DNA of 64,000 nt from Spirochaetota bacterium (GTDB lineage Bacteria; Spirochaetota; UBA6919; CBDBPB01). The stretch is taken from positions 32,001-96,000 of the forward strand of contig CBDBPB010000001.1 of NCBI GenBank assembly GCA_965208615.1, read 5' to 3'. Positions 8,269 to 52,839 of this stretch are shown here, piece after piece. Position 1 is the first letter of the stretch, and each line of letters starts with the position of its first letter. The position numbers were made by a program, and so were the translations under genes. The notes beneath the pieces were generated by a model, which saw only the letters and a list, made by a program, of their open reading frames with translations, had not been told where the DNA came from and did not search any database.

Positions 8269-9148
8269 TAATGGCTCCAGAAGTTACTCTACCGCTAAAG
8301 ACATTGCCAAGGCTTTTTTTGTTTATTTCTTTTATTATATCGTCTATAATATTCTTTGGAGTAGAAGTACCTGTAGTAATACCAATAGACATAATATTAC
8401 TAAAATCAATATTTTGTATTTCATTAGGTTTTTCAATTTGAATAGTCTTTACACCCTGATTTCGACAAATTATATATAGCTTTGTCGTATTAGAACTATT
8501 TTTACTACCAATAACAATCATTAGATCAACTTGTTTTGAAATAGCTTTAGCCTCTGACTGTCTTTTTATAGTTACCCCACAAATAGTCTTACAGATTTTC
8601 ACCTCTTTCGCAAAATCGATTATTATAGGGAACAAATGTGCAACATCTTCCAAGATTATTGTACTTTGAAAAACAACAGCAATTTTTTTCTTTTTAGTTA
8701 ATGGTTTAAGGTCACCTTCATTTTCTACGGCAAGACACTGTTCTTCTATTTGCCCTGCAATACCTACTACTTCAGGATGTTGTTTTTTACCTAAGATAAT
8801 AACAAAATAGCCATCATGAGCTAAATTTTTAACTAACTTTTGAGTTCTTTTCACAAAAGGACAAGTTGTATCTATAATATTTATTCCCTTACTCTCAAAA
8901 GAGTTATACATTTTTGGAGAAATACCATGAGCTCTTATAGCCATGGTATTAGATTTAAGTTCATTTATATTATCTATAACAGATATATTATATTTACTAG
9001 TTAATTCTCTCACCGCAGACGGGTTATGAATAAGGGGTCCAAAAGTATGAACTTCAGTTTTTAAATTTTTAGCAACTTCAATAACCTTATCAAAAGCGTC
9101 TTTTACGCCGTAACAATAACCTATTTCTTTTGCTATAATTATATTCAT
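8258..9148 (-). CDS. ispH: 4-hydroxy-3-methylbut-2-enyl diphosphate reductase
   Basis: GYCYGV, LIHN, IRAHG, DTTCPFV, HPEV, TIC, SSNT and GTSTP motifs. Confidence 0.95.
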   Translation of the reverse strand: MNIIIAKEIGYCYGVKDAFDKVIEVAKNLKTEVHTFGPLIHNPSAVRELTSKYNISVIDNINELKSNTMAIRAHGISPKMYNSFESKGINIIDTTCPFVKRTQKLVKNLAHDGYFVIILGKKQHPEVVGIAGQIEEQCLAVENEGDLKPLTKKKKIAVVFQSTIILEDVAHLFPIIIDFAKEVKICKTICGVTIKRQSEAKAISKQVDLMIVIGSKNSSNTTKLYIICRNQGVKTIQIEKPNEIQNIDFSNIMSIGITTGTSTPKNIIDDIIKEINKKSLGNVFSGRVTSGAINEN

Positions 9149-9188
9149 ACTGTTTTAGTTTTTCACAATAAGCTGTTTTTTGATAAAA

Positions 9189-9506
9189 TTAGCTTTCCCA
9201 GTTATAAATTAGTCTTTCTACTGGTTTTCCATTTTGCATATGACTTTCCACAATTTCTTCTACATCTTTTACTGTTACTTCTTTGTACCACGTAGCCTCA
9301 GGATAAACAACTATAGAGGGACCACTACTGCATGGGCCCATACATGCAGTTGCAGTTACGGATACTTCTCCATATAGATTTCTTTTTTCCATTTCTTCTA
9401 CCAGTTTAACATAAATGTCTTGTGATCTACCCTGACCACAAGATGGTTTAGTCATTGGAGGACGAGTAGTTGTGCAGACAAAAAAATGTTTTTTAAAGTG
9501 GCTCAT
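9189..9506 (-). CDS. Thioredoxin-like [2Fe-2S] ferredoxin
   Basis: HFFVC...SC...ACMGPC..GP.IVVYPE..WY; ATG at 9506 has an AGGAG RBS. Confidence 0.9.
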   Translation of the reverse strand: MSHFKKHFFVCTTTRPPMTKPSCGQGRSQDIYVKLVEEMEKRNLYGEVSVTATACMGPCSSGPSIVVYPEATWYKEVTVKDVEEIVESHMQNGKPVERLIYNWES

Positions 9507-9786
9507 AGGTTCTCCTTTAATATTATCAGCAGACATTAAAAATATAATAACCCTTTAAAAAGTTGTAATACTATTTATATCCTAAAAAGTAATATTATTT
9601 TAATAAAGGTTTACGATTTACATTAGTTTAAATTATACTAACCTAATATAGATTAAAGAGTTAACTTTAGTTTTACTAAACTGTTAAGAAAATTAGCTAT
9701 ATTAGTATATATAAATCTAGTTAAATATGCAAGAAAGTCAACTTTTATTATTAATAAAAACTTTTAACTCTAAGACAAAAAGGCTC

Positions 9787-10690
9787 CTGATGAAGGTAAA
9801 AAGGTTATGAAAGAGGTTTTTGACAATGGGGATAAATATAAACATGTAGGTTTAGACTTTGAGTTAGGGCTGGTAAATATATTTATTTGTTACTAATTGT
9901 TTTAGTAGTGTAGAGCAAAGGTACTCTAAGGTAATTTATCTTTTTTAAAACTTAAAAAACACAGATTATGAAGTTATAGAAAGTGTTCTGATGAAGGTAA
10001 AAAGGTTATGAAAGAGGTTTTTGACAATGGGGATAAATATAAACATGTAGGTTTAGACTTTGAGTTAGGGCTGGTAAATATATTTATTTGTTACTAATTG
10101 TTTTAGTAATGTAGATAAAAGGTACTCTAAGGTAATTTATCTTTTTTAAAACTTAAAAAACACAGATTATGAAGTTATAGAAAGTGTTCTGATGAAGGTA
10201 AAAAGGTTATGAAAGAGGTTTTTGACAATGGGGATAAATATAAACATGTAGGTTTAGACTTTGAGTTAGGGCTGATAAGCATATTTATTTGTTACTAATT
10301 GTTTTAGTAGTGTAGATAAAAGGTACTCTAAGGTAGTTTATCTTTTTTTAAAACTTAAAAAACACAGATTATGAAGTTATAGAAAGTGTTCTGATGAAGG
10401 TAAAAAGGTTATGAAAGAGGTTTTTGACAATGGGGATAAATATAAACATGTAGGTTTAGACTTTGAGTTAGGGCTGGTAAATATATTTATTTGTTACTAA
10501 TTGTTTTAGTAGTGTAGATAAAAGGTACTCTAAGGTAATTTATCTTTTTTAAAACTTAAAAAACACAGATTATGAAGTTATAGAAAGTGTTCTGATGAAG
10601 GTAAAAAGGTTATGAAAGAGGTTTTTGACAATGGGGATAAATATAAACATGTAGGTTTAGACTTTGAGTTAGGGCTGGTAAATATATTTA
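9787..10690. repeat. Tandem array of about 4.5 copies of a 201-bp unit
   Basis: CTGATGAAGGTAAAAAGGTTATG recurs at 9787, 9988, 10189, 10391 and 10592; units near-identical, no unique spacers. Confidence 0.97.
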
Positions 10691-10742
10691 TTTTTTTGTT
10701 AAGGTTAAAGGGATATTATTTAATAGTTTAGTTATCATTTTA

Positions 10743-10751
10743 TGATAGAAT
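10743..10751 (+). promoter_or_regulatory. Extended -10 promoter-like motif TGaTAGAAT
   Basis: Matches TGnTAnnnT; conserved in the second copy (about 52327-52335); lies just upstream of the conserved core. Confidence 0.4.
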
Positions 10752-10761
10752 TATGGATAGT

Positions 10762-11160
10762 CATACAAGGTAAAAAGGCAAGACATATAACGTAAAGGGA
10801 AGTGAATTCCAGATTTCTTTGTGGAACAGGAAAATTAAAATATTCATGGAAAAGTTATTTCCTTGTGTCAAGCAGGTTATCCCTTTATGCTCTTTAAGTG
10901 CTGCTTAAATGCCTTAGCAATGAACACAAAATATCACTTTTTATGCAAGTAGTCATCACTACGAGAGCTATTAAGAATCCCTTGCTGAGACTAAGGATTA
11001 TAGACCTTTATTAAGTGTTAACGGATTTATTGTTCTATAAAAGGATAGAGCGGATTATTGGAATATTCTATATTGACTTTATGTGTATATTTCTATGGGA
11101 ATTAAAAATAATAGAACAGCTTATACCTATAAAAATTGATTAACTTAGAACGTTTTTACA
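10762..11160 (+). ncRNA. Candidate structured non-coding RNA, family unassigned
   Basis: No long ORF; nested stems (10775-80/10910-15, 10791-800/10880-89, 10807-11/10822-26, 10828-33/10858-63) with G-U pairs on the + strand; duplicated at 52346. Confidence 0.4.
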
Positions 11161-11351
11161 ATAAACTACTAAAACATTTGATAACAAAATGCCCGATAGA
11201 ATGCTTTTTGTTATATTTGCTAAAACGTTTGTTAACAAGTTAGTCCAAAAAAGGAAAAAAAAAAGAAAGAACAAAAATATTGAGTTAACTTCTGATATGC
11301 TTAATGAAGCTACAATATGGATAGAAGGTTTAGATAAAATTCATAGACCTA

Positions 11352-14300
11352 TTATTTGCCTATACTGCCTTCAACCACACTAACTAAACTATCAAACCTA
11401 TCATTAAATAGACTAATCTGACCCGATATTTGTGTCATTGCATCACCCTCTTTAAGCTTACCTAATGCCTTGCCTTTTTTATAAGTAGACCGAATATAGC
11501 TAAGCCTTTCAGCCTCATCTTGACTTAGCCAGCCAATAAGCTCTTTAAACCTAAGAAGGTTAAACTCAGCTCCAGTAGTAAGAAGTTGCGACTCATCAGT
11601 ATAGTGATTCATAATCAACTGATTAAGCTCCTCTTCATTCATAATAGGAACTACTTTTTCAGCCATCTTATTCATATTACGATAAGATCCTTGAAGTAGA
11701 AAGTTAGGCTCAGTTCTATAATCATCATCTTGAGCGGCAGAATATATGTATTGCTGATTAACTTTTAGTATAACATCTTGGATGACCAACAGCTTTTTAA
11801 AAACATTAACAAACTCTTTAACCTCTTCCATGGAATAGCCTTTTTCAAACTGAATACCTTCTGAACTATTAGTTTTGGCTATTTTAATCATTTCATAAAT
11901 ATCATGTTGACTACGAGATGCTAGCTTATTTAGTACAGTGTTGGATGTTAAACAATTCTCAAGATAAGATAAGTTAAAAACCTCTGCATTACCACCAATA
12001 ATATCCCCCAGATTATATGTATCAGCACGGTTAGCAAGCATATCAGGTACTCTAAACTTCTCACCACTTTCTGTATAAGGGTTGCCAGCCATAACAACAG
12101 CTACTTTCTTACCCCTAAGATCATAGGTTTTAGTTCTACCGTTATAAACTCCTTCAATCTTACGCTGAGCATCACACAAAGAGATAAACTTCTGTAAAAA
12201 CTCTGGATTACAATGTTGAATATCATCCAAATATATCATCACATTATTAGCCATCTCAAAAGCAAGGTTAAGCTTTTCAACCTCCTCTCTGGCAGTGGCA
12301 TTAACCGCCTCATCAGGATCAAGAGAACTAACCTGATTACCAATGGCTGGACCATTGATCTTCATAAAAATAATACCCAAACGATTACTAATATATTCCA
12401 TAAGAGTTGTCTTGCCATAACCCGGTGGAGAGATAAGCATAAGAAGTCCCATAAGGTCAGTACGTTTAGCTCCTCCAAAGGCTCCCATTTGCTTGGCAAG
12501 GTTAGTGCCAATTAGAGGTATATAAATTGAGTCAATCAGCCTATTCCGTACAAAAGAACTCATCACCTTAGGCTTAAACTCATTAAGACGCATATCTTCT
12601 TTTTTTGCTTCAGTTAGTTTTCTCTTCAGCTGAACATAGGCTTTATAGCTAGGGACTGACTCCAAATAAAAACTATTCAACCTAATTATAAAATCACTAA
12701 TATCAAGCTTTAGTGTGTGTCCATCAACTCTTGAATGCTGACCTATTATCCCATTAATTGTACAAATGGTATTAACAGGTTTAACAAGGCTTTTATCCAC
12801 AGTCTTTCGTGTTAAAAGGCTAATAGCCTCAATTAAGAAGTTATTTTTAGAGTGATTGTTCTGTTTTTCGTTATCATTATATTTAACAAAATGGAATAAC
12901 CAATCTTGGATTATAAATAGTTTACTTTCCAAGTCTGAGCCAACTGCCTTAATGGATTCAATAAACTTTTTGCTTGGGTCTTTCTTTTTCAAAAACTTTA
13001 TAAATCCAGCATAAATATCATAAGCATACTTAGTTATAGGAAATAAGTCTGACCCATCTTTTAACTTCTCTAAAAGAAAGTCTGGTATTTGTTTGAGATA
13101 GAGATCATTTACTGGCCAGGATAACTCACTAAAAAAGCTATCCACCATTACTCTAAGCTGTTTAGCGTATTCTTGGTGATAGTCCTGACTATCGGTTAAA
13201 GAATTTAAATAGCCAAAAGACTTAATCTTTTCTCTTAGACAAGTCTTATCCTCAGACTCAGGTGAATAATACCAAAAGATAGCTCCATAAGCTCTTGTGG
13301 ATGGGTGAAACCTAAGAATACCTGCCTCTTGTAAAACAGGATGGATAGTGGTTAATATCTTACAGGCATCCTCATCATGGACTCCTTTTTCATAGCCCTC
13401 ATCATATAGCCCTGACATAAAATCCCTAATGGTTTGTAATAATCTAGAGGGATTAGCAATCTGTTCTTTTAGTTCATTCTTTGATATAGGCTTATTCTCT
13501 GTTTCTATGCTGGTTAAGAATTTATAAGCCAAATATTCAGCACGATAAATACTTTTTGTCTCACTTGGCCATTCTTGTTGCCAAAACCTTTTAGTATTAT
13601 TAAAATCATTATCCTTAATCTTTTCAAAGAACTCAGTCCCAGTAAGATGGTAATACATAGACCCATTACGGTTTACAGTAGTAAGATCAAAAGCTTGTGT
13701 GTTAACAGTAAACTTATGGGAGCCAAAGGTAATTATATTACCTCCGTGCTCAAAAAGGTCTAAACGATCTTTTAGCTGTCTTGCACCGTCCTGTTGTAGG
13801 CTTTTTAGCCTACTAACAACCTCTTCAGACTTAACACTATCCCCAAGATCAAAAAGCTGTTTAACTATATCTTTAACCTTAGCTATCATCATATCAGAGG
13901 CAAAATAGCCGTTTAACTCATCAATGGACTTTAAGGTTTTAGTCCTATTGGATATACCCTTAAGAATACGATCAGCAGAGTTCCAAAGGGATATGGTCTT
14001 ACGATTTAGGCTTTCTTGTAATTGAACCTTACGATTGTCAAAGGCACTATATACCTCATTACGTTTTTCAGTTAGCTTTTCAATGTAGTCCTCAAAGTCA
14101 GAAAACTTACCTTCTAAGCTCTCAATCTGAACCATGACCTTAGTAAGAAGCTCTTCACATTTTTCAACGGTATCAGCCTGATCAATAAAGTTAGTCACCG
14201 ACTGATTAATAAGTTTAAACTGAGAAGAGAACTCAGCCTTAGCCTCATTAGAAAAAAGAGCCTTATAATGCTTTTTATGGATCGCCTTAACCTGATTAAT

Positions 14301-16298
14301 CCTAATATATACATTGGATATATTATCAATGATCTGCGAAGTTTGAGTTGAGTCCTCAATCTTAAGGCTGTTAGTTATATCGGTCAGAAGGTCAACACCA
14401 TTATTAAGCTTATTTATCTCTTTGCTCAGCTTTTTAATTTCGGTTACCTTAGAAAGACTAGGAATAGCCTCTTCAAACTTTTTAAGCTTTTCAAAAAAAG
14501 GAGATAAAGCATGTTTTTCCAAAAGAAAATTAACACAGTTTTGTGATATCTTATCATAGCTATCCCCAACTAATTTTTCAATCTCATCAACCCTATTTAC
14601 CTCAACATACCTAAGGTCTTTTAGGGATATAATATGCCCTCTTTGTATTTGAAGCTTGGTTAAGGAATCAACATACTCATCTACAACTAAAAACTTGGCA
14701 TTTTTTATATTGTCGATTAGTTTATTAGTGTCCTCTTCAGCAGAAGATAGGCTCTTTTCAGTGTTTTCTCTTATGGTAACTACTTTTTCGTATTCATCAA
14801 TAGCATCATTAGCAGTAGTTAATATATCTAGTAATATATCCTTAGGAGCAAAAGCCTCTTTATGATCCAGCCAAAAGTGAAGATCAATGGCATTAGTAAC
14901 CTCTTTTGCAATCTGATGATAAATCCCTAAATAAACCTCTGACTTCTGTAAAAGATTATATATACCCCTAAGGTCGGCTATTCCTTTTACCAATTCTTTA
15001 TTCCCAATCTTAGATAAGTGAGAACTACTATCAGCAGTTATTAGGGAAAAATCTTTAACAAAAGGAGTCTGCCATATTTGTATAGCATGACTCTTTTTAG
15101 AATCATTATCCCCCTTGAAGATAACCATTTTCCCGTTGTCATAAATAGAGAAACCATGACATAATAAAGGATTATCCACCTTTTTGCTAATGATGTTATA
15201 TTGGAGTAATATATATTCCCCAAACTCCTCGTTGTAAAAGATATATAAATAGTCCTCCCCATTGGGAGAGATAATTAACTTAAGAAAACTCATATCACTA
15301 ACATCAAGGCTAAAAGCTTTATAGTCCCCACTTTTAAGATAATACCCTTTTGGGAATATTAAGCCATCATCCTCAGGAAGACGAATAGCACATTGTCTAA
15401 TATCATCAACCCTAACCACTTTTTGGGTCTTCTCGTTAAATATAAAATAACGGTACTCCTTTTCCTGATAAGGCAAAATCTTTAATAAAATTATATGCCC
15501 CATTATAGAGTAGTAAATATCAGCATCATCCAAAGTTTGCTCTTTATGAATAACCTCTTCAGAATATATACCATTACCATCCTCAGTGTTATCCTCAACT
15601 TTAATGGTAATATCCCCCCCAACACTCTCTACAAAAACCTTATCCTCAATAGAGACATGAGGAAAACGACCATATATATTTTGCTCTCTAGTGGTTTTTA
15701 TCCATTCAAAGTCAATCTGTGGTGGATAAGAATAGCCCTTTGCCGATCTACTACCAGCATAAGTTAAAGTGTTATCCTGATTGACCTGCCACGTGAATAT
15801 TCTAATATCACTAGCGGACTTACCAGTCTGAAAGATCATAAAAAGATTAGCGTCTTTCTCAATAAACGTATTAAACGAAGTATCACGGTAATATTGGTAT
15901 AATCCATGAAAGTCTTTTATAAAGTTCTGATCGTTTAGTAAGTTATTCTCAAGGATACTAAAACTGTTATCCTTCATCTCATACAGACTAAATACATCAG
16001 AGACCTTCATCTCTTTCTTTAAACCAATAAAAACATTATATCCAAAAAGAAGCTTATTCCCAAGAGAAAACATATCTCTTGCTACACAGGTGTTATCAGT
16101 AATTATACGATCAGTAGCAATAATCTTATTCTCAAGAACACCAAAAGCCTCTTTTCTTTTTTCATTAAGTTTGTTAACCCTCTCAAAAAGCTGATTGCTA
16201 TAAGCCAAAAGCCTTTTTCGTATTATCTCATAAGCCCCACTCTCAAGGGTTTGTTCATCAGTAGTCTCATCTTGATTTAATATATTTTGTTTAGCCAT
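11352..16298 (-). CDS. Giant 'DNA repair ATPase' (DUF3686-type) AAA+ protein
   Basis: N-terminal GAYEIIRKRL, beta-rich domain, long coiled coil, Walker A PPGYGKTT, Walker B IYLDDIQH, GNPYTESG, PDMLANRAD. Confidence 0.88.
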   Translation of the reverse strand: MAKQNILNQDETTDEQTLESGAYEIIRKRLLAYSNQLFERVNKLNEKRKEAFGVLENKIIATDRIITDNTCVARDMFSLGNKLLFGYNVFIGLKKEMKVSDVFSLYEMKDNSFSILENNLLNDQNFIKDFHGLYQYYRDTSFNTFIEKDANLFMIFQTGKSASDIRIFTWQVNQDNTLTYAGSRSAKGYSYPPQIDFEWIKTTREQNIYGRFPHVSIEDKVFVESVGGDITIKVEDNTEDGNGIYSEEVIHKEQTLDDADIYYSIMGHIILLKILPYQEKEYRYFIFNEKTQKVVRVDDIRQCAIRLPEDDGLIFPKGYYLKSGDYKAFSLDVSDMSFLKLIISPNGEDYLYIFYNEEFGEYILLQYNIISKKVDNPLLCHGFSIYDNGKMVIFKGDNDSKKSHAIQIWQTPFVKDFSLITADSSSHLSKIGNKELVKGIADLRGIYNLLQKSEVYLGIYHQIAKEVTNAIDLHFWLDHKEAFAPKDILLDILTTANDAIDEYEKVVTIRENTEKSLSSAEEDTNKLIDNIKNAKFLVVDEYVDSLTKLQIQRGHIISLKDLRYVEVNRVDEIEKLVGDSYDKISQNCVNFLLEKHALSPFFEKLKKFEEAIPSLSKVTEIKKLSKEINKLNNGVDLLTDITNSLKIEDSTQTSQIIDNISNVYIRINQVKAIHKKHYKALFSNEAKAEFSSQFKLINQSVTNFIDQADTVEKCEELLTKVMVQIESLEGKFSDFEDYIEKLTEKRNEVYSAFDNRKVQLQESLNRKTISLWNSADRILKGISNRTKTLKSIDELNGYFASDMMIAKVKDIVKQLFDLGDSVKSEEVVSRLKSLQQDGARQLKDRLDLFEHGGNIITFGSHKFTVNTQAFDLTTVNRNGSMYYHLTGTEFFEKIKDNDFNNTKRFWQQEWPSETKSIYRAEYLAYKFLTSIETENKPISKNELKEQIANPSRLLQTIRDFMSGLYDEGYEKGVHDEDACKILTTIHPVLQEAGILRFHPSTRAYGAIFWYYSPESEDKTCLREKIKSFGYLNSLTDSQDYHQEYAKQLRVMVDSFFSELSWPVNDLYLKQIPDFLLEKLKDGSDLFPITKYAYDIYAGFIKFLKKKDPSKKFIESIKAVGSDLESKLFIIQDWLFHFVKYNDNEKQNNHSKNNFLIEAISLLTRKTVDKSLVKPVNTICTINGIIGQHSRVDGHTLKLDISDFIIRLNSFYLESVPSYKAYVQLKRKLTEAKKEDMRLNEFKPKVMSSFVRNRLIDSIYIPLIGTNLAKQMGAFGGAKRTDLMGLLMLISPPGYGKTTLMEYISNRLGIIFMKINGPAIGNQVSSLDPDEAVNATAREEVEKLNLAFEMANNVMIYLDDIQHCNPEFLQKFISLCDAQRKIEGVYNGRTKTYDLRGKKVAVVMAGNPYTESGEKFRVPDMLANRADTYNLGDIIGGNAEVFNLSYLENCLTSNTVLNKLASRSQHDIYEMIKIAKTNSSEGIQFEKGYSMEEVKEFVNVFKKLLVIQDVILKVNQQYIYSAAQDDDYRTEPNFLLQGSYRNMNKMAEKVVPIMNEEELNQLIMNHYTDESQLLTTGAEFNLLRFKELIGWLSQDEAERLSYIRSTYKKGKALGKLKEGDAMTQISGQISLFNDRFDSLVSVVEGSIGK

Positions 16299-16346
16299 AG
16301 GTCTTTTCCGTCAATTTATGTGTAATAATTACTCTTTATCTAAAAC

Positions 16347-18359
16347 TTAAAGCCCCAATAGCTTTCCTGTTATAACATCACCTAATCCAGCTTTATCAGC
16401 CATACCCTTAAGCTCAAAAACCTTATTGAGAATACCCTGATCCTTAGTCGATGCGGATAGCTTAGTTAAAAGAGCAGATATACTTAAGTTTTTAATAACT
16501 TCACTGGATAAGCCCACCTCATCCAATAAACTGGTGATACGCTTTATAAGATTATCATCCCCTGATTTCAAAAGAGCATCTTTTAACTCAGTAAGAACTT
16601 TATTGTTCTCAAAGAAAGCACTGGAACTTTTACCATTAGATATTGATTGTGTGATTTTATTAAAGAACTCTGTCTCACCACCCACAATATCAATATTAGC
16701 ATTCTTTAATGCTGCAGATACAACGGTTGAATGATTACCAGCAATATCCTTGTGGATTTTTAACTGCTCCATAGCAACCTTTTCTTCCATAGCAAGCTTT
16801 ATCTTAAACTCTTCATGCTCTTTACCCGACTCATTAAGTAACTTCATAGCCTCAGCCTTTTTTGTTATCATAGTGGCCTCAGCCAAACCCTTTTGTTCAA
16901 TACCAATAGCCTCAGCCTCATAAGCAGCCCTATGAGAAAAAGCCTTAGCCTCACCCATCATTTTAACGGCATTAGCATCAGCCTCTTTGATTTTTACCCC
17001 AGCTAAACCTTTTTCTTTAATACCTTCAGCCTCAGCAAGACTCATCTCTCTAAGACCATCAGCCTCAGCTAACTTTACCTTTTTAATTGCACTAGCCTCA
17101 GCCTCCTTAACCTTAACCTGAGCAAGACCTGTAGCAGACTCTTCTTCAATAATCCCCTTTGCAAGAGTTTGCTTAGCCTCGGATATTTTAATAGATGTTT
17201 TTCTCTCTGTCTCAGCTTTAACCTCTCTTTCTTGAGCATTAGTCTCTGCCTTAACACGAATTACCTCTTTATCACGTTCAACTTCAGCAAAAGCCCTTAT
17301 GTCTTTTGTTTTTTCTTCTTCTTCAGCAATAGCCCTCTCCTTGTTAACCCTTTCACTAATAATATCCGCCATACTTTTTTTCTGATCTTCTATAAGTTTT
17401 ACCTGAGAAAGTCTTTCTATCTCAGTAGCACCTTTTACCCGCTCATCAGCGGCTTTAACATCCCGCTCTTTATTTTTAGAAGCAAGCTCTAATTTTCGAT
17501 CAGTTTCTATTCTCTGAGCATCAGACTTTAAACGCTCCTCTTCAGCAATCTTATTTGCCTCAGCCTCTTCCCTAGATTGAGCAATAGAAATATGAGCCTT
17601 TTGTTTTGCCTCAGCCTCAGCCTTTTGTTTTTCAAGCTCTAGTATTCTCTCAGTAGCCTCAGTCTCCCGCTTTACAACTATCTCTTTCTTTGTTAGAGTA
17701 GCTTCTTTAATTTTCCTTATACCCTCAGCATCCATAATGTTTTCAGGATCCAATTTGCCAACAGGAGTCTGCTCTAAATAATCTATTGCCGTATCCTCTA
17801 AAGTATAGCCATTTAAATCAGTACCAATTTCCTCAATTATGTTCTGCTTAAATATATCCCTTTCTTGAAAGAGTGATTCAAAGTCCATCTTTTTACCAAC
17901 AGTCTTTAATGCCTCAGCAAACTTAGCCTGAAAAAGATCATCCAATGTATCAGTGGTAGAAGCTCTCTCTATACCAATAGTCTGAGCAACAGTTATAACA
18001 TCAGACGACTCATTGTTAACCCTAACATAAAAATTAGCTGATATATCAGCACGAATATTATCCTTACAAATTAATCCATCAATCCCTTTTCGCTCAACAG
18101 TCATCTTTTTAATGGATATGTCCATACTCTCAGCCCTCTGTATGAACGGAAAAACTAAGCCCCATGTAAAAATAACTTTTATACCCTTAATAGATGTACT
18201 GTCATGAAGTTTTGTTTTAATACCAGGACCCATTATAATAAGGGAGTTACCTGGCTCTACCTTCCGTACAAATCTTTTTAAAAAAATTATTATTAGTATA
18301 AATAATATAACCACCCCAATAATAAATACTACTATTCCACTTTCTAAAATGCTAACCAT
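16347..18359 (-). CDS. Flotillin/SPFH family membrane protein (YqiK-like)
   Basis: N-terminal TM, SPFH domain (GLICKDNIRADI..FYVRVN), long EA-rich coiled coil. Confidence 0.9.
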   Translation of the reverse strand: MVSILESGIVVFIIGVVILFILIIIFLKRFVRKVEPGNSLIIMGPGIKTKLHDSTSIKGIKVIFTWGLVFPFIQRAESMDISIKKMTVERKGIDGLICKDNIRADISANFYVRVNNESSDVITVAQTIGIERASTTDTLDDLFQAKFAEALKTVGKKMDFESLFQERDIFKQNIIEEIGTDLNGYTLEDTAIDYLEQTPVGKLDPENIMDAEGIRKIKEATLTKKEIVVKRETEATERILELEKQKAEAEAKQKAHISIAQSREEAEANKIAEEERLKSDAQRIETDRKLELASKNKERDVKAADERVKGATEIERLSQVKLIEDQKKSMADIISERVNKERAIAEEEEKTKDIRAFAEVERDKEVIRVKAETNAQEREVKAETERKTSIKISEAKQTLAKGIIEEESATGLAQVKVKEAEASAIKKVKLAEADGLREMSLAEAEGIKEKGLAGVKIKEADANAVKMMGEAKAFSHRAAYEAEAIGIEQKGLAEATMITKKAEAMKLLNESGKEHEEFKIKLAMEEKVAMEQLKIHKDIAGNHSTVVSAALKNANIDIVGGETEFFNKITQSISNGKSSSAFFENNKVLTELKDALLKSGDDNLIKRITSLLDEVGLSSEVIKNLSISALLTKLSASTKDQGILNKVFELKGMADKAGLGDVITGKLLGL

Positions 18360-18595
18360 GTTATCTCTCCTTAATTTTAGTAATTTAACAACCCATAGCT
18401 ATATGTAAAAGCATATTTATCCTACAAACAGCTAAAAAACAACTCCATGCTATAATCAAAACGCTATAATATATAGATATACTAATTATAGCGTAATAAA
18501 ATATAACAAATTATAGTACAGGTAAATATACATAAAAATTGAAAAAATACTATAGTAAGAAAAGTTTTTTTATAGTTTGTCTGTAAGAATAGATG

Positions 18596-19192
18596 CTAAA
18601 TACCATTATAACTGGATACGTAAAAAATATCTTTCTCCTTATCATATTCATAAATAAGGGCTTCGCTGTTCTTCTTAAGCCCTTCTGATAACTCAGCCCT
18701 TACGTTGATAATAATAGGAGATGCTCCAGTATGTACCCTAGCTATGCCAGACTTTGGACTTACCATTCTAGAAGTAATTAAACAAGTTTTGCCTATAAAG
18801 TCCGCCTTAGACAAAGACTCATTAGTTTCCAATAAACGCTTTAACGGCTTGGTAATAACCTTAGTCAAGATAGTTACCAAAGGAATTAATATAATCGCAC
18901 CAAGTAAAAAACGAAAACTATCATAACCAATAAGCCAAGCAAAATTATTCAATACAGCGCTTATAACTAACGAATATAGCCATATCTGAAAAGTAAAAAC
19001 AGATAGCCAAATAGAAAAAGGAATAGTACCAAGATTTAAAAAAGACCAAAAGCCATCAGCCTCTACTTCAAAATCAAATACCTCAATATCAAAAGCACCT
19101 AAAATAACAGTCAGCCAAAATAAAATAACTATCCCCAATAAAATTGTATATGGCAGGCTAATAGGTTCTAAAACATGAAAAAGAAGCTCCAT
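18596..19192 (-). CDS. NfeD-like/YqiJ (DUF1449-like) membrane protein with C-terminal OB fold
   Basis: Hydrophobic segments, LNLGTIPFSIW, OB-fold pattern FIGKTC.I...V....G.A; upstream of flotillin. Confidence 0.8.
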   Translation of the reverse strand: MELLFHVLEPISLPYTILLGIVILFWLTVILGAFDIEVFDFEVEADGFWSFLNLGTIPFSIWLSVFTFQIWLYSLVISAVLNNFAWLIGYDSFRFLLGAIILIPLVTILTKVITKPLKRLLETNESLSKADFIGKTCLITSRMVSPKSGIARVHTGASPIIINVRAELSEGLKKNSEALIYEYDKEKDIFYVSSYNGI

Positions 19193-19433
19193 AAATATAC
19201 CCTCATAAATATAGTTGTTATAATATAATAGTTTTTAGCTTTGTAGACACTTAATTGATCGTCATAAAAACCTTAAATTAATTATTTATTACATATCTAT
19301 ATATCTATAAAGTATTCGATTACTTTTTCTTTTAATCCAAATTGTTGTTTAAATTATTTAATCTAGTTTTGCACAACGGAATAAAATTATTATTATACTA
19401 ACTTGATAATAAAATATAAAAGGAGTAAAAAAA

Positions 19434-19931
19434 ATGGCTAAAGTAACTCTTAAGGGTAACCCTATTAATACCAATGGTAATCTTCCTCAAAAAGGAGAAC
19501 AGGCTCCAGATTTTAAACTGGTTACCAACGATTTGCAGGATGTATCACTAAGTGATTTTAAAGGAAAGAAAAAACTATTAAATATAGTTCCAAGCCTTGA
19601 TACCCCTGTTTGTTCTGCGTCTACTAAAAAGTTTAATCAAAATGCTACTGAAAACAATGCTGTAATACTTGTTATCTCAGCTGATCTACCGTTTGCTCAG
19701 TCAAGATTTTGTGATGCAGAAAATACCAAGAATGTTAAAACTCTATCTATGATGAGAGGAAAGCAATTCGCAAAAGACTACGGTATTTTAATTGTAGATG
19801 GACCTTTAGCAGGCATCTCAGGAAGAGCAATAGTAGTTTTAGACGAAAGTGATAAAGTAGTATATACAGAGTTAGTTCCAGAAATTACACAAGAACCCAA
19901 TTATGAAAAAGCATTAGCCTCTTTAAAATAA
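19434..19931 (+). CDS. tpx: Thiol peroxidase (atypical 2-Cys peroxiredoxin)
   Basis: [27 protein letters not shown]. Confidence 0.96.
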
Positions 19932-19940
19932 ATCAAAAGT

Positions 19941-19969
19941 TGAGTGCATAACTTAAGTTTATGTACTCA
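19941..19969. terminator. Hairpin between convergent genes
   Basis: TGAGTGCATAA / TTATGTACTCA stem. Confidence 0.55.
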
Positions 19970-19980
19970 CTATAGATATT

Positions 19981-20637
19981 TTAATCTATATCATTAATAA
20001 TTAGGCGAGTTTCGTCTTGAGATATTACACGACGAATTGCCTCATCATTAAGTTGACCCTTTTTCTGTTTAGTATTTTCAGTATTTTTCTGTTTAGTATT
20101 TTCAGTATTTTTCTGTTTAGTATTTTCAGTATTTTTCTGTTTAGTATTTTCAGTATTTTTCTGTTTAGTATTTTCAGTTTTAACATTATTTGATGACTTA
20201 TTAGCGAGACGTTGTTGAACATTATTTCTTTTTATAGTATTTCTTTTTATTTTGGTCTTATATAGTTTAGTTTTATATAGAGTTGAAGATTTTATACTTT
20301 TGGGTATATTATTGTTTTGAATAGGTTGTTCTTCCTTATTAGTAAGATTATCATTATTAGGAAGGTTATCATTTTTTATAATTATTTGATTATTTTTTTC
20401 ATTATTTAGTTTATCTGTATTTTCTTTGTTTACGACTACGTTATTAGTCTCAATTAATTTTTTAGATTTATTAGAACTTTCACTACTAAGATCGCCTATT
20501 TTATCATAATCATAAGAATAAATATACTCTAAGTAACTACGTATACTAACAATAGATAATATTATAATAGCTAAAAATAGTATTACTCTTTTATAAGGCG
20601 ACCTTTTTTTAATAGGTTTTGTAAAAAGACCACTCAT
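19981..20637 (-). CDS. Membrane-anchored low-complexity protein with 8-aa tandem repeat
   Basis: N-terminal TM, Asn/Lys-rich, (TENTKQKN) about 5 times. Confidence 0.7.
   Translation of the reverse strand: MSGLFTKPIKKRSPYKRVILFLAIIILSIVSIRSYLEYIYSYDYDKIGDLSSESSNKSKKLIETNNVVVNKENTDKLNNEKNNQIIIKNDNLPNNDNLTNKEEQPIQNNNIPKSIKSSTLYKTKLYKTKIKRNTIKRNNVQQRLANKSSNNVKTENTKQKNTENTKQKNTENTKQKNTENTKQKNTENTKQKKGQLNDEAIRRVISQDETRLIINDID
20061..20178. repeat. 24-bp coding VNTR, about 5 copies
   Basis: TTTTCTGTTTAGTATTTTCAGTAT repeated with period 24. Confidence 0.95.
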
Positions 20638-51917: not shown

Positions 51918-52770
51918 TGTTATCGATTGTTTTAGTAGTGTAGAAAGGCATTATAAGTTAGTTTATCTTTCTAAAACTTCCTAGTTAACATTTTTAATAA
52001 AAAAATAGTTTTTTTATTAAAAATGAGCTAATTTATAAAGTTAAATTTTAAAAATAACAAAACAGGGTAGGAGAAGGCGGGGCTATTTATAATAATGAAG
52101 AGCAAAAGTATTCTAAGGTAATTTATCTTTTTTTAAAACTTAAAAAACACAGATTATGAAGTTATAGAAAGTGTTCTGATGAAGGTAAAAAGGTTATGAA
52201 AGAGGTTTTTGACAATGGGGATAAATATAAACATGTAGGTTTAGACTTTGAGTTAGGGCTGATAAGCATATTTATTTTTTTGTTAAGGTTAAAGGGATAT
52301 TATTTAATAATTTAGTTATCATTTTATGATAGAATTATAACGAGGCATACAAGGTAAAAAGGCAAGACATATAACGTAAAGGGAAGTGAATTCCAGATTT
52401 CTTTGTGGAACAGGAAAATTAAAATATTCATGGAAAAGTTATTTCCTTGTGTCAAGCAGGTTATCCCTTTATGCTCTTTAAGTGCTGCTTAAATGCCTTA
52501 GCAATGAACACAAAATATCACTTTTTATGCAAGTAGTCATCACTACGAGAGCTATTAAGAATCCCTTGCTGAGACTAAGGATTATAGACCTTTATTAAGT
52601 GTTAACGGATTTATTGTTCTATAAAAGGATAGAGCGGATTATTGGAATATTCTATATTGACTTTATGTGTATATTTCTATGGGAATTAAAAATAATAGAA
52701 CAGCTTATACCTATAAAAATTGATTAACTTAGAACGTTTTTACAATAAACTACTAAAACGCTTGATAACA
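51918..52770. mobile_element. Putative non-autonomous element (MITE-like), copy 2
   Basis: Left TGTTATCGATTGTTTTAGTAGT, right ACTACTAAAACGCTTGATAACA; 52099-52770 homologous to about 10515-11186. Confidence 0.6.
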
Positions 52771-52839
52771 AATTGTATCCCATTTGAGTAAATAATAAAT
52801 AAATAAAACCTAAAATAATCCTAATTATGAATGTATTAT

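Follow-up and report, generated by a model that had tools for sequence, protein, structure and literature searches.

The window analysed here, a stretch of 64,000 nucleotides (nt) of a Spirochaetota genome (positions 32,001 to 96,000 of contig CBDBPB010000001.1, assembly GCA_965208615.1), carries on its minus strand three co-oriented genes that are a further copy of a known membrane module, consisting of a YqiJ-type membrane protein of 198 amino acids (aa), a flotillin-like protein of 670 aa and a 1648 aa ATPase in which a predicted beta-propeller is joined to an AAA+ module. The module is already in print. Ravi et al. (2024; mSystems, PMC11237479) describe an operon encoding CesT/Tir, PspA, a YqiJ/YuaF protein with three transmembrane segments, a band-7/flotillin protein and a protein with a beta-propeller, a coiled coil and an AAA+ module; they also describe an 'abbreviated' trio, free of PspA, as widespread and as one that might work with a PspA encoded elsewhere, and the idea that the ATPase acts on flotillin is already proposed there. 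The window locus by itself adds little beyond another copy. What is gained by comparing it with its relatives is that flotillin, and not PspA, is the constant partner of the ATPase, that the trio probably moves and appears to evolve as a unit, and that an Asp-Asp ending of the Walker B motif is a fixed trait of the ATPase family. The biochemical role of the trio is inferred from gene linkage, and we consider the flotillin scaffold, not DNA, to be the most likely target of the ATPase.

The three genes and the two membrane proteins

The open reading frame (ORF) listing places the gene for the YqiJ/YuaF-type protein, a short NfeD-like membrane protein, at 18596..19192, that for the flotillin-like SPFH scaffold at 16347..18359 and that for the ATPase at 11352..16298, all on the minus strand, with gaps of 236 nt between the first two and 48 nt between the second and third. 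The initial annotation of this DNA, which was made from the sequence alone, had described three co-oriented genes here, and all three were recovered with identical end points and orientation; the tpx gene that it had placed divergently upstream is also there (19434..19931, plus strand; Pfam Redoxin/Tpx, E 4.7e-36).

The 198 aa protein has hydropathy segments at residues 4-41, 59-88 and 85-117, corresponding to about three transmembrane segments, followed by a soluble C-terminal part of about 80 residues. This arrangement, encoded 5' of an SPFH gene, is the layout of the YqiJ/YuaF type. The protein itself gave no Pfam or NCBIfam match even at E 0.1, the YqiJ_N (PF21001) and NfeD (PF01957) models included. 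Of its orthologues, 32 were compared with these models, giving YqiJ_N matches in 19 (best E 8.1e-9) and NfeD matches in three, and in 48 of 80 related loci (described below) an orthologue detected with phmmer lies directly upstream of the flotillin gene; searched against the PDB, a profile of the orthologues had YuaF (2k14) as its sole match, a weak one (E 0.73). Thus the label 'NfeD-like', which had been applied to this protein from the outset, is carried by its orthologues and by its transmembrane layout, but not by any direct match of the protein.

The 670 aa protein has a Band_7/SPFH match (Pfam, E 2.3e-10, residues 34-211), a single hydrophobic segment at residues 1-35 that would form an N-terminal transmembrane or hairpin anchor, and a Glu/Lys/Ala-rich helical region of about 300 residues, with Glu, Lys, Ala and Arg together making up a fraction of 0.46-0.58 of residues 201-550. 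An anchor, a Band_7 domain and a long charged helical region are the layout of an SPFH scaffold. Identity to 31 orthologues is 38-46%, with conserved blocks at residues 61-360 and 481-570. The FloT equivalog model NF058507 scored 26.2 bits against a cut-off of 700, and we class the window protein, on its sequence, as flotillin-like and not as an orthologue of FloT. The flotillin profile found no match in the PDB at E 1e-3, and its first 230 residues alone found none at E 1.

Architecture of the ATPase

The ATPase, whose gene is present in a single copy in the genome and whose database name is 'DNA repair ATPase', has no transmembrane segment by hydropathy and is taken to be cytoplasmic, whereas the flotillin and the YqiJ-like protein are membrane-anchored by the same measure. 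It has the layout of the DUF3686/DUF7902 family, in which a full DUF3686 domain (PF12458; E 6.2e-175, residues 37-475, profile positions 2-448 of 448) is followed by DUF7902 (PF25472; E 4.2e-21, residues 596-678) and by one AAA+ module (AAA, E 5.9e-8, residues 1287-1367; AAA_5, E 3.3e-5, above its cut-off) in proteins of about 1600-1900 aa. More than 3342 homologues were found, and more than 100 of these, from across phyla, are 47-67% identical to the window protein over 97-100% of its length.

The protein was modelled with AlphaFold2 in two overlapping parts, residues 1-1100 and residues 1000-1648, each from a 44-row alignment, with mean predicted local distance difference test (pLDDT) values of 82.9 and 82.2 respectively. 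The first model predicts a helix at residues 18-52, a beta domain at 58-410, helices at 427-847, a small beta unit at 856-893 and a helical domain from 919 onwards. By structural alignment the beta domain is a putative seven-bladed beta-propeller (residues ~55-412, with the helix 18-52 before it; 15063..16136, minus strand), which aligns to the WD40 domain of DCAF1 (Z 9.9, root-mean-square deviation (rmsd) 3.9, 175 residues aligned) and to YncE (Z 8.5), both with modest scores. The helices that follow, as assigned by DSSP on the model (pLDDT mostly 70-90), would form a long arm of about 420 residues (~427-847; 13758..15020, minus strand) that includes DUF7902. The top Foldseek matches of the 1-1100 model were propeller-plus-solenoid proteins of the IFT-A and nucleoporin kind, with template-modelling scores (TM-scores) of no more than 0.15, and we do not take them to indicate kinship with coat proteins.

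The second model contains one AAA+ module of the MoxR/dynein type at residues ~1242-1590 (11529..12575, minus strand). We assign this modelled module to the MoxR class because its best structural neighbours are NorQ (9qh4_F; Z 16.8, rmsd 3.4, 238 residues aligned) and CbbQ (5c3c and 6l1q; Z 16.4), ahead of Rea1/dynein (Z 13.8-13.2) and then of the D2 modules of ClpA/ClpB (Z ~13). It is the best-conserved part of the protein, with a fraction of 0.82-0.88 of the alignment rows sharing the commonest residue, and both the sensor-1 region (MAGNP) and a PDMLANRAD segment are conserved in the family alignment; when the ATPase profile was compared with the PDB by sequence, only the stretch around the P-loop and Walker A matched.

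The Walker motifs had been described initially as intact, which holds for Walker A, a canonical SPPGYGKTT at residues 1290-1298 (12405..12431, minus strand) that is identical in 71 of 71 family members, but not in the same sense for Walker B. The usual ending of a Walker B motif is Asp-Glu. In this protein the hydrophobic strand at residues 1354-1359 (12222..12239, minus strand) ends instead in Asp-Asp and continues with IQH, reading LDDIQH. Because the DDIQH segment is invariant in all 71 aligned members, the Asp-Asp ending is best regarded as a family trait and not as decay.

Some homologues depart from the common architecture. Six of them (P0029, P0044, P0049, P0052, P0056 and P0110) are longer, at 1834-1950 aa, and carry ankyrin, HEAT or TPR repeats according to precomputed Pfam assignments, which suggests that the ATPase sometimes gains further modules for binding proteins. 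At one locus from a Desulfococcaceae metagenome-assembled genome (MAG), a 235 aa ORF (L030:3165-3869, plus strand) resembles part of the ATPase (E 1e-57) and lies about 6 kb upstream of the full gene; it may be a partial duplicate.

Gene linkage in related genomes

Species-representative genomes were scanned with a 14-member family alignment, yielding 572 confirmed relatives of the ATPase, and neighbourhoods were surveyed around the best 80 of these, using flanks of up to 10 kb in which six-frame ORFs were compared with the window proteins and with rebuilt hidden Markov models. Linkage was counted at the 58 of these 80 loci in which the flank upstream of the ATPase gene extends over 3500 nt or more, the 22 with a shorter upstream flank being left out. 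A flotillin gene lies directly upstream and on the same strand at 53 of the 58, and for the five loci that lack one (L004, L006, L030, L035 and L044) a full-length orthologue, in frames of 688-784 aa, is present elsewhere in each genome; the YqiJ-like gene is detectable at 47. The association of this ATPase family with NfeD/YqiJ-SPFH pairs, which the initial annotation had given as known, is thus well borne out. The distance from the flotillin stop codon to the ATPase start has a median of 120 nt and is no more than 150 nt in 39 of 61 loci; inserts between the two genes occur in 11 of the 61, and the ten that were inspected hold unrelated small ORFs and no fourth component. No other neighbour family recurs at more than nine of the 80 loci.

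The counts for PspA are quite different. A pspA gene is found within 7 kb at 11 of the 58 loci, with none nearby at the remaining 47, and a CesT/Tir gene is nearby at seven. The accompanying statement that the ATPase is often found with PspA therefore stands in a weaker form, namely that the two are sometimes linked, the majority arrangement being one without pspA nearby. Thirteen loci have a PspA match; in ten of these pspA is directly upstream, and at L036 it is on the other strand, some 1 kb downstream, while L058 and L070, which are among the 22 loci left out of the linkage counts, have it directly downstream of the ATPase gene. Eleven of the 13 are from Bacteroidota.

Distribution and origin of the trio

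DUF3686 occurs in only two of a sample of 151 Spirochaetota genomes, the window genome and one other (G153), and the flotillin type seen in the window is confined to the same two; G153 has the same three-gene order. A quick FastTree tree of the AAA+ region, with 71 rows, is effectively unrooted, so that no donor is claimed from it. It places the window ATPase as sister to a copy from Moduliflexota (support 99, 77% identity) and implies 12 switches of phylum label where 10 is the lowest possible number, which for the sequences sampled would mean that the ATPase family has descended mostly vertically within the big phyla. A flotillin tree of 63 rows, equally quick and effectively unrooted, groups the window flotillin (support 100) with just two others, that of G153 and that of the same Moduliflexus genome, where the flotillin gene is unlinked from the ATPase gene. 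The pattern fits co-evolution of flotillin and ATPase even where their genes are unlinked. The GC content of the trio (0.346) is above that of the genome (0.313) and falls at the 94th percentile of 7.8 kb windows, which is suggestive only. Taking the ATPase tree, the flotillin tree and the GC content together, we conclude that this spirochete probably gained the three genes together by horizontal transfer.

PspA and CesT/Tir genes in ATPase-bearing genomes

That no pspA adjoins the trio, as had been observed at the start, is correct: the sole PspA_IM30 match in the 2.46 Mb assembly (E 1.5e-51) is on contig C6 and not on C1, the contig that includes the window and with it the trio, and in this the genome resembles the majority of related loci. 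The search for a pspA gene elsewhere in the genome, which had been recommended, thus had a positive outcome, and the gene found is immediately preceded by a CesT_Tir_1 gene (E 1.8e-26). The pair lies about 203 kb into contig C6, at 203059-204114 (locus L003:7590-8720), flanked on one side by smpB and on the other by two large ORFs, of 604 and 428 aa, to which Pfam assigns no domain; a peroxiredoxin gene of the AhpC/TSA type is situated near it, echoing the position of tpx beside the trio. A search of the PDB with the CesT-like protein returned only an unrelated designed protein (E 0.0029) and did not reach the BacA crystal structure.

A search for PspA (PF04012) covered 50 of 58 ATPase-bearing genomes. 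A match was present in 36 of these (33 of them over the cut-off) and in 14 there was none, the PspA-free genomes including one isolate assembly (L026, Pontibacter coccineus) and one MAG filed as a single chromosome (L068). PspA is present in nine of 14 well-known control genomes, and compared with that figure it is not enriched among the genomes that have the ATPase. The CesT_Tir_1 gene, scored irrespective of whether pspA lies behind it, occurs in 25 of the 151 Spirochaetota genomes (18 over the cut-off), including relatives of the same order and the same class that have no trio, and is absent from the trio-bearing G153. Because it is present in trio-free relatives and not in G153, the CesT/Tir gene has the appearance of a native gene of the lineage and the trio that of an addition, to judge from these distributions, which offer no support for an obligate partnership between the two. 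Our counts make PspA look like an optional add-on and flotillin like the constant partner.

A possible role in remodelling flotillin assemblies

SPFH proteins, including flotillin, prohibitin and HflK/C, form large domes or barrels on membranes. We know of no organism in which the mechanism that disassembles or reshapes the cages of flotillin and other SPFH proteins is known, and a conserved ATPase that is almost never found without flotillin is an obvious candidate for this function. In the reading that we prefer, the YqiJ-type protein and flotillin would be anchored in the inner membrane and, if the solved SPFH/NfeD complexes are a guide, would oligomerize into a scaffold on the cytoplasmic side of it. 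The soluble ATPase, in which the propeller and the ~420-residue helical arm are followed by a helical middle part and a single MoxR-class AAA+ module, would probably form a ring, and would dock on the flotillin assembly by its propeller/arm end; the AAA+ ring would then spend ATP to assemble, open or dismantle that assembly during envelope stress. We give about an even chance to the proposal that an ATPase ring reaches the flotillin assembly through its arms and propellers and remodels it under envelope stress at the expense of ATP, in which the binding, the formation of a ring, the direction of remodelling and the stress trigger are all inferred. A bolder version is that the ATPase is a dedicated, PspA-independent machine for opening or dismantling SPFH cages, with the Asp-Asp Walker B making it a slow, switch-like motor and six propeller-ended arms gripping the cage. 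This we put forward only tentatively, as somewhat less probable than the general form, although, if it is true, no energy-dependent factor for the recycling of an SPFH scaffold would have been known before this ATPase.

Several points weigh against the proposal. MoxR-class ATPases are normally paired with a partner that has a VWA domain, as the titles of the NorQ-NorD entries illustrate; Pfam found no VWA domain in the window neighbours and none was seen among the recurrent neighbours, in a Pfam scan that was not extended to all neighbours, and the lack of a VWA gene among the recurrent neighbours leaves the MoxR analogy incomplete. Gene linkage cannot separate action on the scaffold from action on clients held by it or on PspA recruited to it. 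The propeller assignment is a modest one (Z no higher than 9.9), and the Asp-Asp Walker B may mean that hydrolysis is slow, or that the ATPase is a nucleotide-dependent switch. In Pseudomonas aeruginosa, among the phenotypes given in PMC13086221, deletion of the SPFH gene of the bac cluster (PA14_16180, encoding PaFlo3) reduced biofilm by about 20% and had no strong stress phenotype. The name Pseudomonas is itself absent from the best 120 homologues returned by searches from the window ATPase and from a myxobacterial copy. Finally, the incompleteness of MAGs may explain some absences of PspA, which limits the weight of the count of 14 PspA-free genomes in 50.

Alternative roles

The alternative that survives best places PspA at the centre, with the ATPase as a Vps4-like motor for ESCRT-III-like PspA and with flotillin and the YqiJ-like protein as its platform, working in this genome with the CesT/Tir-PspA pair encoded on another contig. 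We think it unlikely, although it has several observations behind it. PspA lies by the trio at 11 of 58 loci and CesT/Tir at seven of them, pspA follows the ATPase gene directly at L058 and L070, and the window genome has exactly one PspA, with a CesT_Tir_1 gene before it; furthermore, the Bacillus subtilis SPFH protein YdjI is reported to link PspA to the membrane (PMC8581546). Against it stand the 14 of 50 ATPase-bearing genomes without a PspA match, and the 36 that have one represent no more than the nine in 14 of the control genomes. The CesT_Tir_1 gene is spread over 25 of 151 Spirochaetota, trio-free relatives included, and missing from G153, the AAA+ module is of the MoxR class and not of the classical Vps4 clade, and the 13 PspA-matching loci include 11 from Bacteroidota, so the link is lineage-restricted.

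Slightly less likely again is a function in the quality control of clients, in which flotillin and the YqiJ-like protein would hold unfolded or damaged membrane proteins and the ATPase would extract, refold or release these without targeting the scaffold, much as a small heat-shock holdase works with ClpB. The FloA-NfeD complex of Staphylococcus aureus is described as an ATP-independent holdase that stabilizes unfolded proteins (PMC11222466), so that there would still be a place for an ATP-dependent partner. The cages of HflK/C are paired with FtsH, an AAA+ protease, and the ClpA/ClpB D2 modules come next after the MoxR and dynein classes in similarity to the AAA+ module (Z ~13). However, the nearest folds are MoxR-type remodellers and not threading unfoldases, and no protease or chaperone gene recurs near the 80 loci. 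Our data do not separate action on clients from remodelling of the scaffold, which we continue to prefer.

A role in antiphage defence, one of those suggested in the initial annotation, in which phage would be sensed or blocked at the membrane, is improbable. Searched at E 0.01, PADLOC-DB 2.0 gave no family match for the three proteins, no defence-type neighbour recurs among the 80 loci, and the local neighbours of the trio (tpx, ispH and a TPR protein) are of the housekeeping type by Pfam. Induction by phage has been reported, PA3728-PA3732 belonging to a set of 17 genes whose expression rose in every phage-infected P. aeruginosa sample (PMC12041424), but the same would be expected of any envelope-stress operon; similarly, the patchy occurrence of the trio in Spirochaetota (two of 151) and the signs of its horizontal transfer recall defence systems, but the 12 phylum-label changes against a minimum of 10 indicate mostly vertical inheritance, unlike that of typical defence genes. 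A literature search on flotillin or SPFH proteins and antiphage defence found the defence term in none of the papers listed.

Participation of the ATPase in DNA repair, for which there are the Pfam and NCBI names and weak matches to RuvB_N and RuvB (E 4e-4 to 5e-3), is extremely improbable, since those matches span only residues 1277-1321 (about 45 residues around the P-loop) at scores under their cut-offs (20.5 against 27 bits for RuvB_N, and 15.9-18.6 against 282-299 for the RuvB equivalogs), Pfam finds no nuclease, helicase or DNA-binding domain, no DNA-repair gene recurs near the 80 loci, the constant partners are membrane proteins, and the term DUF3686 was not found in the literature searched. 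The doubt that had been expressed about this label was well placed; the name 'DNA repair ATPase' is unsupported and misleads annotation.

Regulatory signals and flanking sequences

The intergenic region that the trio shares with tpx (19193..19433) is probably the trio promoter region, although the evidence is weak. It contains the best sigma-70-like match of our scan (10/12, from 19420 to 19392, minus strand), in a scan that as a whole is at chance level, with 48 matches found against 45.0 +/- 6.7 in shuffled sequences; a terminator scan was also at chance level. The 236 nt gap between the YqiJ-like and flotillin genes (18360-18595) is long for an operon and contains a 9/12 sigma-70-like match (18409 to 18382, minus strand), and the flotillin and ATPase genes may have a promoter of their own, on chance-level evidence. 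Matches to the sigma-54 consensus number 15 across the window against 21 expected, none of them upstream of the trio or in 19193-19433; one perfect -24/-12 match lies at 12496-12510 (minus strand), inside the ATPase coding region. Rfam gave no match at E 0.1 in 9000-20000.

Adjoining tpx is a 218 aa ORF (19981-20637, minus strand) of very low GC content (0.234) with no Pfam match; its sole match is to the NCBIfam model of AuxB, a lipoteichoic-acid factor, at 18 bits against a cut-off of 300. On the other side, directly 3' of the ATPase gene, is a tandem array of a 201 bp unit (9787-10693; 4.5 copies, 98% matches). The array lies inside an ORF-poor region of about 1.8 kb (9537-11351). This region belongs to a dispersed repeat, of which the genome has more than 40 partial copies, another of them in the window at ~52087-52775 (84087-84775 of contig C1); no variable lipoprotein gene adjoins the region.

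Comparison with known systems

A short NfeD/YqiJ-type gene directly upstream of a flotillin gene is the arrangement of yqiJ-yqiK in Escherichia coli, yuaF-floT in B. subtilis and FloA-NfeD in S. aureus, and in this respect the window locus resembles them. The hosts of these two-gene operons are without the DUF3686 gene, none of the 14 control genomes having a match, and the window flotillin is below the FloT cut-off. The AAA+ module, in turn, has its best structural neighbours, over about 240 residues, in the NorQ and CbbQ proteins of the NorQ-NorD and CbbQ-CbbO systems, with Rea1/dynein next. It differs from these MoxR members in being preceded, within one polypeptide, by some 1240 residues of propeller, arm and helical sequence, in the Asp-Asp rather than Asp-Glu ending of its Walker B motif and in the absence of a VWA gene from the window neighbours.

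Two further systems are similar in concept. The HflK/C-FtsH complex also couples an SPFH scaffold to an AAA+ machine at the inner membrane. FtsH, however, is a protease that is itself embedded in the membrane and that belongs to the classical AAA clade, and the cage is periplasmic, whereas the window ATPase is soluble and has no protease domain, and its scaffold would face the cytoplasm, to judge from hydropathy. Vps4 and ESCRT-III exemplify the recycling of a membrane-bound polymer by an AAA+ ring, but Vps4 belongs to another AAA+ clade, no MIT domain was found by Pfam in the window ATPase, and the constant partner of the latter is flotillin, not PspA.

Another known system is the bacABCDEF cluster of P. 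aeruginosa (PA3732-PA3727; PMC10948618, PMC13086221, PMC2587700), in which BacA is CesT-like, BacB is PspA, PA14_16160 is a short NfeD protein, PA14_16180 is the SPFH protein PaFlo3 and PA14_16190 is BacE, with BacF encoded last. Reverse transcription PCR gave products across each bacA-bacF intergenic region, including that from bacD to PA14_16190, and in a bacA mutant five Bac partner proteins were increased 6- to 13-fold (PMC10948618); PA3728 has been entered as an 'ATPase' (PMC8190622). The bac cluster has the content of the long operon form, and the equation of BacE with a DUF3686 protein, drawn from gene content and published description, is a putative one. The window locus differs from it in having no BacA or BacB gene at the locus, no BacF-like gene, and no sigma-54 site upstream of the trio of the kind that has been proposed for bacA.

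The closest counterpart is the operon described in PMC11237479, which has the same three proteins in the same order. With a trio that lacks pspA and a pspA gene elsewhere, the window genome falls into the 'abbreviated' class of that account. In the long form of the operon the CesT/Tir-PspA pair is in one operon with the trio, whereas the window genome has the pair on contig C6 and the trio on C1. Within the published description of the operon we see no structural difference from the window trio, and what distinguishes the copy reported here is that it is in a spirochete, a group in which the trio is rare (two of 151 genomes).

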